Notes: generated from the sequence alone by a model not told the origin. 63,782 nucleotides of DNA, filler included, from Collodictyon triciliatum (GCA_043381765.1; 12 parts of 12 records of this genome joined end to end with filler, not necessarily neighbours in it); one strand, 5' to 3'. Shown: positions 35,322 to 40,931, numbered from the whole stretch's first letter. Numbers and translations: made by a program.

Positions 35322-38300
35322 TTATAATAAACCTTGTTCCAGATAGACGCGCCCTTGCTTTACTGCACTCGCTTCTAGTTGATGGCTTTTGGTACATTTT
35401 TTCAATTCTGAGTCATCTATCTTTGCTGATGTTTGAACATAACCGTCTAATCCATGACGTTGGCATTCGGGGCATTCAAAACGATAAGCTTCCGCAAAAT
35501 TTGGTCGAATTGATGATATTTGTTTGATGAAGGTTGAAAGGATATCAAAAATCCTGACGAATCTATCACCATCATCAACCTCATTTTCATATTTTCTAAT
35601 CTTGACTGAAATACTCTTTTGGTGGATTCGATACAGAATAATCAAAGAGTCTCCAGGAAGCAGTTGAATTTCATCCGTTCCTGTTTTGTAGTAAGCATTC
35701 AGATGTATGAACGCGACATCTCTGAAAAACTGGTCGTCATATTGAACTCCAGCTTGTGCCTCTTTTGTCAAACGAAGCGCTTGTATGACGACGTTGCTTT
35801 TATCAGAAAGCTGGATTTCACCATTGGTCATTATTTCTACAGAGGTCTCAGCAATGCAGTTTGACTCTGGTTTATCATTCCATAAGGCTTTGAGATTTTG
35901 GCAATCTTCCATCAGTGAGGGAAAGGCGATGCATTCTCTGTTGAATTGAATACCAAGGCCGAAATGGTCAAAAATTCGAAGAATTGTATTGAAAACTTGT
36001 TCATCCATTTCTGTATTCAGTTTTTGTTTGATTTGGTCTTTTAGCTTGCTCAACAAAATGATACCGTTTGTGTCCTTCCCGATGCCTTTGAAGCTGAAGA
36101 CACAACGGAATATATTAATGAGAAAGAGTGGGTCTAAAAATATAATGTCTTCGATATATTCAAGTGATGAATACCAAACGACCGAGCCAAGGTCGTGGAG
36201 GAACTTGAGAGCACTTTCGCACCCATTTCTATCCATACCTAGCTGCTTCTTGGCAAAATCGTAAGTGTCTTGGATTCGTTCATACTTTGATATTTGGCTT
36301 TTCGAATTCAGATAGTCTTTCAGCCCGATATATGTTTTTGGAATCTCCTTGTTCATGCTATCAAGCGTCATCATTCCTTCATATAAACCTTTCTTCAAAT
36401 CAGATATTTTTGTTCCACTCTTGTTGCTTACTTTCAACTCTGTACTGATGAAGATGTGGCGAGCCTTTTCATCCAGTTTCTGCTCATTTTCTTTTTTGAT
36501 ACGTTCTATTTCTTTTTGCATCTCTTGAATATAAGTTTGATTTTCGCAATCTTGACGAGTCCCAGCAATTATGATTTTTGAGCCAGGTGCAAAGTCATCA
36601 AGCATTTTGACCCAGCGGCTGAGATTGTTCTTCTCCTTGCCTTGGTCGAGTCTGTAAAGGATTAAAACGAGGGCGCCTGATGACAAAAAGAATGGGTGTG
36701 TCACTTGGAACTCCTCTTGCCCTCCAAAGTCCCAGATTTGCACGGAAATCTTTGTATTGAATAGTCCACCCATGGTCGACTCATCAATATCAACGTGGGC
36801 AATACCATCAGTTGCAATCCTTGGCTGGTCCACGGTATTCTTGAAAAACATAGATTTTTGGGTGATTGATTTGATGAGTGTTGTTTTTCCTGCCTCTCCC
36901 TCGCCCAATAGTAGGAGTCTTCCTTGGGTCCATTTTACAACACCATTCATGGAGTTTGCCAGGAAATCGAAGATAGCCTCAGACCCATTGCTAATGACGT
37001 TTCGTGGTATATTTTTAATTTGATTTCCCTGGATATTCAGTCCACTTCGAAGAGCTTTAAGCTTGGCGATGATTTCGGGTAACTTTTCAATCTGATGATG
37101 ACATATGCGAGTTTTTTTGTTATATTTACGTAATACGGCCATATAACTTGATCGAAAAAATAAATAAACAGGAAAATGGAAGAGAAATGGAAGAGAAATG
37201 GAAGAGAAATGACCTTGTTGTTGGATATGTCCAGTTTTTGAAGATTTGCAAGGTCTGCTATGACATCTGGGATGTGTGAAATCTGGATTTGTACGATGGG
37301 TGAGTTTAAGTGGGTATTTGATTACTATATTTGTATTTTTGTTCATTCATCAGGTGTTATTGCTTTGAACATGCGTTTTGTGTAGATTTATAACCTGATT
37401 TCCAGAAATATTGAGGGTCACGATAAGAGTTATTGTACAAATGACTGTGGGGAATGCGTCGAGCTGAAATACCCGCGTATTTTTCAGTTAATTCATTAAG
37501 TAGAATGCATGTTAGGCTGTTTGAATTGCGTGTTTACATACATTCCAATATTTATGTTAATGTCTGTGTACCCTGTTGTTGCTGATGCTGAGATTTGTGA
37601 GATTCGTCAAGTTCGACGTGTTTGCTGGCAGTGTGGATATCTATTTATATATTAATTAAAGAATTTTGAATGAAATCAAATTATTCATAAAATGGATTAC
37701 CGATTATAGGAGTTCCATTCACATATGAGCCATTATAAACCTGGTTGTTGGAGATGTCAAGCTCGTTGGATTTGATGGGCAGTATGAACAGTTCATTTGG
37801 TAAATCTGTGATGTTTCGTCCAGATAGACTTATTCTATCGCTATTTGCGAGATTGATCGAGTCTAAAATTTGTTGGATGTACGATGGAAAAGCATTTTGC
37901 TTCGTGTCCAGCTTCTTGAGCTTTTTCAACGCTCGCAAATCAGGCAAAGTGGATATCTGTTAATTGAAGGGAGGTGTTATTCCTTAATATCGACGACTGA
38001 TACATGAATCTGCAAGCAAATCACAGGCATGTAGTTTGTAGTGTATGAATCAATCATCAATCATTCTGTCTGAATCAAGCACTAATGGTCGTACCATGTT
38101 GCTGCTGATACTGAGATTTGTGAGATTCGTCAAGTTCGATATGTTTGGTGGCAGTGTGGATATCTATTTATGTATTGATTAAAGAGGGTTTTGTTGCAAT
38201 CAAATAATTAATTAAATGGATTAGGGAATTATAGGAATGTCTTCTTTTTTATAAATGAAAATAGATTTAGTTACCTGGTTGGTGGATATATCGAATGATG

Positions 38301-40889
38301 CGACGAATGTCAATGCGCAGATGACTGCAGGCAATACGTCGAACTTTGGTGTGTAAGTATTTGTCAGAACACTCTCACTTATGATAGGCTGAGATGTGTG
38401 TTTATTATATTTATTATTCCGATGTTTCTACCTTATTGTTGCTGATGCTGAGATATGTGAGATTCGTCAAGTTCGACATGTTTGCTGGCAGTGTGGATAT
38501 CTATTTATATAATAATTAAAAAATGTTGAATGAAATCAAATTATTCATAAAATGGATTACCGATTATAGATATTCTATTCACATATGGGCCATTATAAAC
38601 CTGGTTGTTGGAGATGGCAAGCCCTTTGATGGGTAGCATGAACAGTTCATTTGGTAAATCTGTGATGTTTCGTCCAGATAGACCTATTCTATCGCTATTT
38701 GCGAGATTGATCGAGTCTAAAATTTGTTGGATGTACGATGGAAAAGCATTTTGCTTCGTGTCCAGCTTCTTGAGCTTTTTCAATGCTCGCAAATCAGGCA
38801 AAGTGGATATCTGTTAATTGAAGAGAGGTATTATTCCTTAATATCGACGACTGATACATGAATCTGCAAGCAAATCACAGGCATGTCGTTTGGTGTATGA
38901 ATCAATCATCAATCATTCTGTCTGAATCAAGCACTAATGTTCGTACCATGTTACTGCTGATACTGAGATTTGTGAGATTCGTCAAGTTCGATATGTTTGG
39001 TGGCAGTGTGGATATCTATTTATTTATTGATTAAAGATGGTTTTGTTGCAATCAAATAATTAATTAAATGGATTAAGGAATTATAGGAATGTCTTCTTTT
39101 TTAAAAAAAATCAATTTAGTTACCTGGTTGGTGGATATATCGAGTGATGCGACGAATGTCAATGTGCAGATGACTGCAGGCAATACGTCGAACTTTGGTG
39201 TGTAAGTATTTGTCAGAACACTCTCACTTATGATAGGCTGTGTGTATGCTTTAATTTTTTTCAAGTATTCGTACCTTGTTGTTGCTGATGCTGAGATTTG
39301 TGAGATTCGTCAAGTTCGACATGTTTGCTGGCAGTGTGGATATCTATTTATATATTAATTAAAAAATGTTGAATGAAATCAAATTATTCATAAAATGGAT
39401 TACCGATTATAGATGTTCCATTCACATATGGGCCATTATAAACCTGGTTGTTGGAGATGTCAAGCTCGTTGGGTTTGATGGGCAGTATGAACAGTTCATT
39501 TGGTAAATCTGTGATGTTTCGTCCAGATAGACCTATTCCATCACTATTTGCGAGATTGATCGAGTCTAAAATTTGTTGGATGTGCGATGGAAAAGCATTT
39601 TGCTTCGTGTCCAGCTTCTTGAGCTTTTTCAATGCTCGCAAATCAGGCAAAGTGGATATCTGTTAATTGAAGAGAGGTATTATTCCTTAATATCGACGAC
39701 TGATACATGAATCTGCAAGCAAATCACAGGCATGTCGTTTGGTGTATGAATCAATCATCAATCATTCTGTCTGAATCAAGCACTAATGTTCGTACCATGT
39801 TACTGCTGATGCACTAATGTTCGTACCATGTTGCTGCTGATGCTGAGATTTGTGAGATTCGTCAAGTTCGATATGTTTGGTGGCAGTGTGGATATCTATT
39901 TATTTATTGATTAAAGAGGGTTTAAATAACAATCAAATTACTAATAAAAAAGATTTACGAATTATAGGGGTATATTGTTAAAAAAGGATTTAGTTACCTG
40001 GTTGGTGGATATATCAAGTGATGCGACGAATGTCAATGTGCAGATGACTGCAGGCAATACGTCGAACTTTGGTGTGTAAGTATTTGTCAGAACACTCTCA
40101 TTTATGATAGGCTGAGGTGGATATTCATATGCTCACTAATTCAAGTATTCGTACCTTGTTGTTGCTGATGCTGAGATTTGTGAGATTCGTCAAGTTCGAT
40201 ATGTTTGCTGGCAGTGTGGATATCTATTTATTTATTAATTTAAGAGAGTTTAGTTGCAATTAAGTTGGTAATTGAATGGATTAACCATTAAATGGATGTC
40301 TCGTTAAAAAGAAGGATTTAGTTACCTGGTTGGTGGATATATCGAGTGATGCGACGAGTGTCAATGCGCAGATGGCTGCGGGTAATGCATCGAACTTTGG
40401 TGTGTAAGTATTTGTCAGAACACTCTCACTTATGATAGGCTGTGTGTATGCTTTAATTCTTTTTTTTTCAAGTATTCGTACCTTGTTGCTGCTGATGCTG
40501 AAATTTGTGAGATACGTCAAGTTTGATATATTTGCTGGCAGTGTGGATATCTATTATTTATTAATTAAACAAGTTTTAATTGCAATCAAATGACTAATAT
40601 AATATATTAATGAATATAGGAATGTCGCCTTTTTTTAAAAAAAAAAAAAAAGGATTTAGTTACCTGGTTGGTGGATATATCAAGTGATGCGACGAGCGTC
40701 AAAGCGCAGATGACTGCTTGTAATGCATCGAACTTTAGTGTGTAAGAATTTGTCAGAACACTCTCATCTATGATAGACTGGGATGTATATTTATATGCTT
40801 GTCAATTCAAGTATTCGTACCTTGTTGCTGCTGATACTGAGATATGTGAGATTTGTCAAGTTCGACATGTTTGCTGGCAGTGTGGATAT
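35322..40889 (-). CDS. Roco protein: LRR array + Roc GTPase + COR, no kinase (5'-truncated by contig end)
   Basis: Terminal exon 37091-35322 has P-loop GEGEAGKTT, switch I ATDGI, IWDFGGQEEFQVTHPFFLS, GTRQD, and COR motifs IPKTY, ALKFLHDLGSVVWY, IFLDP. 19 upstream phase-0 LRR exons: 40821-40889, 40664-40732, 40482-40550, 40326-40394, 40155-40223, 39998-40066, 39827-39895, 39444-39659, 39275-39343, 39124-39192, 38947-39015, 38601-38810, 38432-38500, 38275-38343, 38095-38163, 37741-37956, 37572-37640, 37395-37463, 37214-37282. Confidence 0.93.
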
Positions 40890-40931
40890 CTATTTATATA
40901 TTAATTAAAAAATGTTGAATGAAATCAAATT
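37572..40931. repeat. Tandem exon+intron duplications of the Roco LRR region (~850-bp four-exon unit x3; ~330-bp two-exon units)
   Basis: The large exon recurs at 37741, 38601 and 39444 (spacing 860 and 843 bp), with near-identical flanking introns. Confidence 0.92.

Follow-up and report, generated by a model that had tools for sequence, protein, structure and literature searches.

A partial Roco GTPase gene with a tandem array of predicted one-repeat LRR exons in DNA of a likely Diphylleia relative

Introduction

When a gene encodes its leucine-rich repeats (LRRs) one per exon, and every exon begins and ends in the same phase, the question arises of whether the layout serves to diversify a receptor or records the duplication of blocks within a gene. 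This question is posed here for a locus at positions 35322 to 40931 of a 63,782-base window (the whole stretch of DNA that was analysed; Collodictyon triciliatum, GCA_043381765.1), at which a partial gene of the Roco family (LRR-Roc-COR GTPases) carries 19 short predicted exons ahead of the exon that encodes Roc and COR. The window is a string of twelve unlinked contigs, most of about 5.75 kb, joined via N44-TTAATTAATTAA-N44 spacers, and the Roco gene lies on one of them. A preliminary description of the locus had compared it to the ROCO genes of the brown alga Ectocarpus and had proposed an analogous system, possibly of its own origin, that diversifies an LRR-GTPase sensor by recombination or alternative splicing. 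The Ectocarpus precedent is real and, in the cited passages, the argument for exon shuffling there draws on three things: LRR exons within introns that are inactivated or lie on the reverse strand, positive selection, and splice variants (PMC3341825; PMC11378527). The locus examined here is probably a fragment of a nuclear LRR-Roc-COR GTPase gene of a diphylleid relative, with an array that was recently amplified in blocks and is held under purifying selection. Full-text literature searches found no paper joining Roco with Collodictyon or Roco with Diphylleia.

Exon inventory and reading frame

Exons were located by scanning the reverse strand for stop-free 69-nt windows preceded by AG and followed by GT, which were then chained with longer exons. 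This yielded 20 predicted exons on the minus strand: 16 of 69 nt, three of 210-216 nt, and a final exon of 1770 nt. All of them (20/20) have AG before and GT after, a length that is a multiple of three, and an open frame 0; the joined predicted frame is open over 1171 codons, with introns of 82-167 nt. The contig and its exons are as follows.

35126..40931 (5806 nt), minus strand: whole contig with the partial Roco gene, flanked by N44-TTAATTAATTAA-N44 spacers
5' ends at 40889, 40550, 40223, 39895, 39343, 39015, 38500, 38163 and 37640, minus strand: nine A exons, 69 nt each
5' ends at 40732, 40394, 40066, 39192, 38343 and 37463, minus strand: six B exons, 69 nt each
5' end at 37282, minus strand: D exon, 69 nt
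39659-39444 (216 nt), 38810-38601 (210 nt) and 37956-37741 (216 nt), minus strand: exons C1, C2 and C3
37091-35322, minus strand: final exon on the contig, 1770 nt (589 codons plus stop)

The claim of at least 19 consecutive AG/GT exons in phase 0 made in the preliminary description thus holds in all coordinates and counts, as does its division of the array into sixteen 69-nt one-LRR exons (nine A, six B, one D) and three C exons, to which an A' subtype and a diverged B6 can be added. The order that it gave for the transcript, A-B-A-B-A-B-A-C-A-B-A-C-A-B-A-C-A-B-D-[LRR-Roc-COR], is exactly that of the predicted exon chain. Sixteen of the 19 array exons encode precisely one 23-residue LRR each and the three C exons encode about three LRRs each; the solenoid on the contig comprises about 27 repeats, with exon boundaries in the register N-x|o-x-x-L-P. 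Since these one-LRR exons are symmetric and in phase 0, the frame would survive the gain, loss, or skipping of any cassette, as had been pointed out. The A' subtype (ISTLPPNISNLTNLTNLSISSNM; …LPPNIS…SSNM) accounts for three of the nine A exons and is always followed by C, and each C exon ends at a phase-0 CCAG|GTTTAT donor. Exon B6 (37463-37395) shares only 60-65% nucleotide identity with the other B exons.

The array stands well above background. Stop-free AG-69nt-GT windows number 21 on the gene strand and five on the other strand of the array, whereas 200 shuffles averaged 1.57 and never exceeded 7, and a 35-mer of exon A occurs nine times at <=3 mismatches, always on the minus strand, where 0 occurrences are expected. 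Retention would break the frame for 18 of the 19 introns, 17 of which contain an in-frame stop, while the D1-to-final-exon intron is stop-free but shifts the frame. The A2-to-B2 intron (40395-40481, 87 nt) is the only one of the 19 that is both stop-free and in frame if retained.

The B exons have weak AAAG acceptors, and upstream of five of them, at distances of 30 and 45 nt, lie in-frame alternative acceptors. Each A-to-B intron shows exon-level conservation in its 3' half (45-48 nt before B; e.g., 39193-39240, 38344-38391, and 40067-40114), which is open in frame with B; a CTGAC branch-point-like motif lies inside this half, about 30 nt from the B-exon acceptor. B exons of 99 or 114 nt, as would result from the upstream acceptors, were considered as the main model and rejected: the introns would shrink to 37-52 nt, the LRR period of 23 residues would be lost, and in the diverged B6 it is the 69-nt boundary that a canonical acceptor marks. 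Such longer B exons are possible as minor isoforms.

Identity of the final exon and the ends of the gene

As the preliminary description had held, this is a true Roco gene. Its final exon begins with about two LRRs ahead of Roc and carries the following features.

36549..36920, minus strand: Roc GTPase domain, exon residues 58-181, PF08477
35955..36341, minus strand: COR-A domain, exon residues 251-379, PF16095
35502..35894, minus strand: region called COR-B-like from its fold only, about residues 400-530
35382..35474, minus strand: CPEC...C-x3-H motif (C540, C543, C566, H570), from sequence comparison, common to the relatives in Diphylleia rotans
35126..35334, minus strand: post-stop region, with CAAG|GTTTAT as a candidate phase-1 donor shortly ahead of the stop, and with an AT-rich stretch that resembles an intron

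Pfam assigns Roc with E 6.6e-20 (72 bits vs a cut-off of 27) and COR-A with E 1.2e-12 (48.3 bits vs a cut-off of 35.3). The Roc motifs can be read directly: the P-loop is GEGEAGKT, switch II is DFGGQ, and G4 is a TRQD variant, with G1 and G3 intact; G63, K69, D121, and G124 are invariant across 41 aligned sequences. No Pfam match to COR-B was found in the final exon at E <=0.01. An AlphaFold2 (AF2) model of the exon, built on the 41-sequence alignment, has a pLDDT of 84.3 and a pTM of 0.84 (residues 450-530: pLDDT 47-85), and its best Foldseek matches are LRRK1, LRRK2, and the Roco of C. tepidum (6hlu/3dpu), over 560-650 aligned columns at E 4e-27 to 1e-18. The C. tepidum RocCOR tandem 3dpu was matched with a TMt of 0.71 and the COR structure 3dpt was matched as well, and the modelled fold suggests that a COR-B part is present. 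In sequence comparison against the PDB, phmmer matched M. barkeri Roco2 (4wnr), LRRK2 (1316-1677), and C. tepidum 3dpu/6hlu. The CxxC...CxxxH motif behind COR is possibly a zinc ribbon.

The frame stops about 15 residues past the C-x3-H, at a point from which D. rotans proteins run on for 40-45 residues into DUF4062 or its counterpart. An acceptor-like …aaataaag lies about 105 nt past the candidate donor and the frame is then open to the contig end, so a further intron may follow the final exon, with the gene continuing beyond it. The contig ends 196 nt past the stop, and Pfam finds no DUF4062 or STAND domain within the 589-residue exon. The last 99 nt of the contig showed no similarity to the linker or DUF4062 start of the relatives, in a comparison that read a single frame other than the open one and had no power.

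Repeat structure and origin of the array

The array is a higher-order tandem repeat made of three 328-nt [A-B] units followed by three [A-B-A'-C] units of about 850 nt, introns included. Its parts are listed below.

40224..40889, minus strand: older [A-B] repeats, with A1 40821-40889, B1 40664-40732, A2 40482-40550, B2 40326-40394
39344..40223, minus strand: unit U1, with A3 40155-40223, B3 39998-40066, A4' 39827-39895, C1 39444-39659, and introns
38501..39343, minus strand: unit U2, with A5 39275-39343, B4 39124-39192, A6' 38947-39015, C2 38601-38810
37641..38500, minus strand: unit U3, with A7 38432-38500, B5 38275-38343, A8' 38095-38163, C3 37741-37956
37214..37640, minus strand: junction to the unique part, with A9 37572-37640, B6 37395-37463, D1 37214-37282
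39780..39843, minus strand: 31-nt duplication in tandem, taking in the end of exon A4' and its GT donor, from Tandem Repeats Finder

Tandem Repeats Finder reports a period of 328 nt with 3.4 copies and 83% matches, and the third 328-nt [A-B] period extends into A3/B3. Units U1-U3 can be aligned over their full length, through exons (97-98% identical) and introns (88-93%) alike. By segment, identity among the units is 96-99% for exons, 77-94% for the A-to-B and B-to-A' introns, and 92-100% for the A'-to-C and C-to-A introns; C2 carries an in-frame 6-nt deletion. Across the array, nucleotide identity within a cassette type is 85-99% (A 88-98%, B1-B5 85-98%, C about 97%); A9, at 97% to A5, is part of the young repeat. 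B6 and D1 are old, diverged one-LRR exons with unchanged boundaries and ordinary pyrimidine-rich acceptors; that these boundaries were kept despite divergence gives independent support to the register of one LRR per exon.

Between A1 and the contig end (40931) lie 42 nt whose sequence recurs unchanged at the 3' end of the C-to-A intron of U1 and almost unchanged in U2 and U3. This match implies that the array goes on beyond the contig, in agreement with the preliminary description, and the exon upstream of the contig end would probably be another C. The second A4' donor created by the 31-nt duplication would, if used, give a 100-nt exon and a frameshift; the duplication may be real or an assembly slip.

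Differences between copies were counted as the ratio of nonsynonymous to synonymous differences (pN/pS) by a crude pairwise Nei-Gojobori count on few sites, which gave 0.57 for A (36 pairs), 0.34 for B (10 pairs), and 0.64 for C (3 pairs). Synonymous divergence is 0.04-0.18, within the range of intron divergence. By this measure the cassette copies look constrained rather than diversifying. The end-to-end identity of the units, introns included, is the pattern that recent unequal crossing-over would leave when it copies blocks of exon plus intron, and the near-identity of the A'-C-A stretch suggests later gene conversion or constraint.

Relatives in Diphylleia rotans

A protein search against 1.84 billion representatives returned 7232 matches at E <=0.001, nine of them at E <=1e-30. 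Among the 20 best representatives that were looked up, ten, including the eight best, are Diphylleia rotans transcripts from EukProt with 29-39% identity over Roc-COR; others include bacterial, bivalve, and dictyostelid proteins. An earlier search, limited to proteins of 323-1031 residues, had returned only distant matches of <=32% identity, mostly from metagenomes, with the named ones bacterial or archaeal. In a tree of 51 Roc-COR regions (IQ-TREE, quick method, LG+G4, without bootstrap), the window's sequence, flagged for unusual composition, lies within a clade of 13 rows, ten of them from D. rotans (Shimodaira-Hasegawa-like approximate likelihood ratio test, SH-aLRT, 100), and there within the subclade of the D. 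rotans proteins P0066-P0069 (98). This placement is consistent with a non-stramenopile lineage. A fragment of coatomer gamma (COPG) on another contig of the window shares 81% identity with D. rotans COPG, with the next match at <=69%. From these similarities, the source organism is most likely a Diphylleia (CRuMs) relative distinct from D. rotans and not a stramenopile.

In all four of P0066-P0069, LRR-Roc-COR-A is followed by AAA_16, a P-loop NTPase of the STAND type; DUF4062 is present in P0067-P0069 and NPHP3_N in P0067. These are proteins of 1900-2200 residues with a hybrid Roco/NLR-like architecture. P0070, also from D. rotans, has a PH domain at its end and no DUF4062-STAND part. Two 2026 preprints report DUF4062 to be a TIR-like NADase, an effector domain of immune type, which eukaryotic NLR-like proteins carry at their N-terminus (10.64898/2026.09.04.749371; 10.64898/2026.05.01.722283); the terms "Roc" and "LRR" do not occur in the first of them. 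An immune-receptor label for the window's Roco would have only indirect support, by analogy with the AAA_16 and DUF4062 of these relatives.

The perfect 23/23 cassette repeats of the window's gene model set it apart from its clade. Near-identical 23-residue cassettes, sought as window pairs of >=70% identity, were found in none of 14 clade members (12 from D. rotans and two others), with the proviso that Trinity may collapse repeats.

Tests of shuffling and alternative splicing

Several signatures by which cassette shuffling could reveal itself were looked for. A blastn search for orphan, inactivated, or inverted cassettes (E <0.5) found none in the contig or the rest of the window: the matches were nine A, five B, one B6, four C-exon, and one D, all in the contig and on the coding strand. 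The introns, at 82-167 nt, are too short to hide exons. With pN/pS below 1 for A, B, and C in the crude pairwise count, positive selection on concave-face LRR residues is not indicated.

Splicing was approached from two sides. Trinity isoforms of D. rotans differ by N-terminal truncation, by a 49-residue insert resembling a retained intron, or by alternative C-termini, and no internal LRR cassette differences occur among the six isoform groups that were aligned (seven clusters were covered overall). Pairing between introns of the docking/selector type known from Dscam was rejected as a candidate, there being only AT-rich arms with 70-84% complementarity. Also set aside was a 19-nt complementarity of 79-84% between exon A (e.g., 39312-39330) and the acceptor and start of exon B (e.g., 39177-39195), which is confined to the young units, is missing from A1-B1 and A2-B2, and is probably due to chance.

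Paralogues sharing cassettes were not found in two metagenome scans or a protein search. The scan with the Roc-COR protein gave 170 pattern matches, none of which was confirmed, the scan with a degenerate exon-A pattern gave none, and when longer proteins were searched with the C cassette, none of 464 candidates scored, which is weak evidence. Two freshwater metagenome runs nevertheless share 6-7% of the window's words. They yielded four and 33 short contigs (150-270 nt) with 85-99% likeness to parts of Roc-COR and to single cassettes, without joints, and one contig crosses the A9-to-B6 junction. At this likeness, sequences of the window exist outside the source assembly; the contigs carry no information on cassette order, expression, or habitat range.

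The proposal that the array diversifies the gene by recombination or splicing is therefore not supported: the strictly periodic order is that of plain tandem segmental duplication, pN/pS is 0.34-0.64, orphan and inverted copies are lacking in the window, and the isoforms of the relatives show no cassette differences. Moreover, with cassettes of the same type 85-99% identical, skipping would alter length more than specificity.

Comparison with known one-LRR-exon systems

The closest precedent is that of the type I LRR exons of brown-algal ROCOs (Ectocarpus, Saccharina; Zambounis et al., 2012; Teng et al., 2024), which in the cited passages share with the window's gene the LRR-Roc-COR architecture, one LRR per exon, symmetric in-frame exons, and tandem amplification of exon-intron units. 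The brown-algal exons are 72 bp long and in phase 2 (PMC11378527), whereas those described here are 69 nt long and in phase 0, and their boundary falls two residues earlier within the LRR. The passages also report, for the brown algae, inactivated and reverse-strand exons in introns and positive selection at four concave-face sites, neither of which was seen in the window, as well as documented splice variants. The lineages differ too, brown algae being stramenopiles and the window's source a Diphylleia relative.

Tetrahymena LRR genes, according to passages of PMC6564038, comprise thousands of non-Roco genes with 90-nt exons and phase-2 introns, associated with retroelements. They resemble the window's gene in having tandem exons of one length tied to the LRR period and in their expansion by unequal crossing-over, there called exon shuffling, but differ in exon length and phase (90 nt, phase 2, against 69 nt, phase 0). 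Vertebrate NOD/NLRC genes encode one 28-residue LRR per exon, and alternative splicing of NLRP3 has been shown experimentally, as stated in passages of PMC6642158. NOD/NLRC and NLRP genes thus have the same strict exonic LRR modularity that allows in-frame skipping, but their repeats are of the RI type, with 28/29 residues, in NACHT proteins, compared with 23-residue repeats in a Roco.

Among Rocos themselves, those of D. rotans (EukProt EP00002; P0066-P0073, P0076, P0078) share with the window's gene an N-terminal LRR array, the CxxC...CxxxH after COR, and a common clade. They are known as transcripts, in which exon layout is not visible, and P0066-P0069 extend into AAA_16/NPHP3_N whereas the window's exon does not. 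The solved Rocos (C. tepidum 6hlu/3dpu, M. barkeri 4wnr, LRRK1/LRRK2) have the same LRR-Roc-COR fold with P-loop and DxxG, but share only 14-21% identity with it; the window's LRR array is far longer, and no kinase, WD40, or ankyrin part was seen in the window's gene.

Because exon length, phase, register, and supergroup all differ, the exon design probably arose independently of those of brown algae, Tetrahymena, and NOD/NLRC. Thus, one half of the earlier proposal of an analogous system with its own origin stands as plausible, given 69-nt phase-0 exons in a Diphylleia relative, while its other half, a diversifying role, is unsupported.

Weighing of alternative explanations

The reading preferred here as probable is that the contig holds a fragment, cut at its 5' end and possibly at its 3' end, of a gene for what would be a large cytosolic Roco. 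Its array would have expanded by unequal crossing-over of exon-plus-intron blocks, first the two-exon A-B and later the four-exon A-B-A'-C, and purifying selection, perhaps joined by local gene conversion, would have preserved the copies since then. By analogy with Roco proteins in general, the LRR arc may bind a partner or ligand, with Roc-COR as a possible switch that depends on GTP; the closest relatives would have their output module in the AAA_16 STAND NTPase, preceded in three of four by DUF4062. Of this reading, the anatomy, family, repeat structure, and relationship of the gene are shown directly, whereas how the array expanded, how selection acts, and what the protein does are inferred. 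A number of points weigh against this reading. The start of the gene is off the contig, and its true end may lie at the stop at 35322-35324 or beyond it. Cassette number and order come from a single contig of 5.8 kb, broken off within the repeat; independent contigs cross one cassette junction at most, and the amplification is so far unique to this gene (0 of 14 relatives), which mis-assembly could mimic. The splice sites are predicted from sequence, a search of public runs for the window having matched only the two freshwater metagenome runs and no RNA run. The pN/pS values rest on few and non-independent pairwise comparisons, the near-identity of the A'-to-C and C-to-A introns is accounted for by assumption only (gene conversion or constraint), and the placement of the taxon rests on one unlinked contig and on similarity among paralogues. 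Cassette number and order are accordingly provisional.

It is unlikely, though worth keeping in mind, that the array is in part an artefact, its cassettes being real while their count and arrangement, like the 31-nt duplication, would stem from the assembly of near-identical 850-nt repeats out of limited data. A 5.8-kb contig from a very fragmented assembly that ends inside a repeat, an A'-C-A segment that is 92-100% identical between units over >400 nt, a duplication sitting on a splice donor, and the fact that no metagenome contig bridges two cassette junctions would all fit this explanation. Against it stand unit-specific substitutions and indels in the A-to-B and B-to-A' introns (77-94%) and in exons (the C2 6-nt deletion, N/Y changes), which offer anchors to an assembler and are not what collapse or chimerism produces, the coherent hierarchy of old A-B units (83%) and young four-exon units (88-98%), and the recurrence of the A9-to-B6 junction and of single cassettes at about 95% identity in independent runs. 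That the cassette layout generates receptor variety, by alternative splicing, germline gain and loss, or somatic recombination, is quite improbable. All 19 array exons are in phase 0-0 and in a common LRR register, so that every combination would be a regular solenoid; the array was amplified recently and repeatedly, B exons combine weak AAAG with in-frame alternative acceptors, the closest relatives carry an NLR-like module (AAA_16 4/4, DUF4062 3/4), and metagenome run X2 contains two or three different contigs on identical COR positions, which fits paralogues or strains. Yet pN/pS is below 1 in all three cassette types, the identity among same-type cassettes means that recombination would add little specificity, and the arrangement follows a strict period; of orphan, inactivated, or inverted copies, the hallmark in the cited Ectocarpus passages, the window has 0, intron complementarity of the docking/selector type is missing, the six D. 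rotans isoform groups show no internal cassette differences, and no cassette-sharing paralogue was found. Very little credence is given to a decaying or non-functional duplicate, the truncated remnant of a longer Roco-DUF4062-STAND gene, for which one could cite the stop about 15 residues past the CxxC...CxxxH, where P0066-P0069 continue into AAA_16/DUF4062, and the duplicated A4' donor that could shift the frame. All 20 exons are open with intact AG/GT, they are more conserved than the flanking A-to-B and B-to-A' introns and have pN/pS below 1, G1, G3, and the invariant positions are preserved, a further intron past the final exon is plausible, and P0070 is a relative that does without DUF4062-STAND.

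Other sequences in the window

The GC content of the window's pieces ranges from 0.31 to 0.51, and more than one organism may be among them. Features recognized on them are the following; the tRNA was the sole yield of the Rfam and tRNA scans, in which no taxon marker turned up.

8310-8876, minus strand: coatomer gamma platform domain, E 3.9e-31
45185-45586, plus strand: ZNF598-type RING fragment, E 7.6e-09
63033-63503, minus strand: DUF423 fragment, E 2.1e-25
50349-50420: tRNA-Gln(CTG)

On a GC-richer contig, an open reading frame of 368 codons (58224-59330, minus strand) contains an EEP domain of the endonuclease-reverse-transcriptase type (PF14529, E 3.5e-08) and looks like a fragment of a non-LTR retroelement. 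Simple-sequence tracts among 23363-23970, 6624-7052, and 7428-8136 comprise a (ATACATAC…)-like microsatellite with HTYIHTYI frames and K/E/G-rich charged or low-complexity frames.

Implications

The locus is a well-documented example of recent intragenic segmental duplication and not evidence for a diversity-generating mechanism. A role of the layout in receptor diversification is possible but unsupported, and several tests able to favour it came out negative. It is a long shot that a diphylleid independently evolved a cassette-exon LRR sensor, a Roco with relatives fused to a DUF4062 NADase-STAND (NLR-like) module, whose phase-0 array differs in copy number from one individual to another or is alternatively spliced to tune recognition. 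Were that the case, modular LRR-exon immune receptors would have arisen convergently for a third time, alongside those of brown algae and vertebrate NLRs, and a Roco-NLR hybrid would for the first time be linked to such an origin. One-repeat, in-frame LRR exons are already known from brown-algal ROCOs, Tetrahymena LRR genes, and vertebrate NOD/NLRC, and a further case, of another length and phase, in the distant and barely sampled CRuMs would mean that the design comes up time and again when LRR arrays expand. Repeated origin would make it a property of LRR solenoid evolution rather than a quirk of one lineage. The relatives of the gene also point to an unstudied diphylleid expansion of Rocos in which LRR-Roc-COR is joined to a STAND NTPase, mostly together with DUF4062, and the link between Roco GTPases and NLR-like machinery that this would represent is directly testable.

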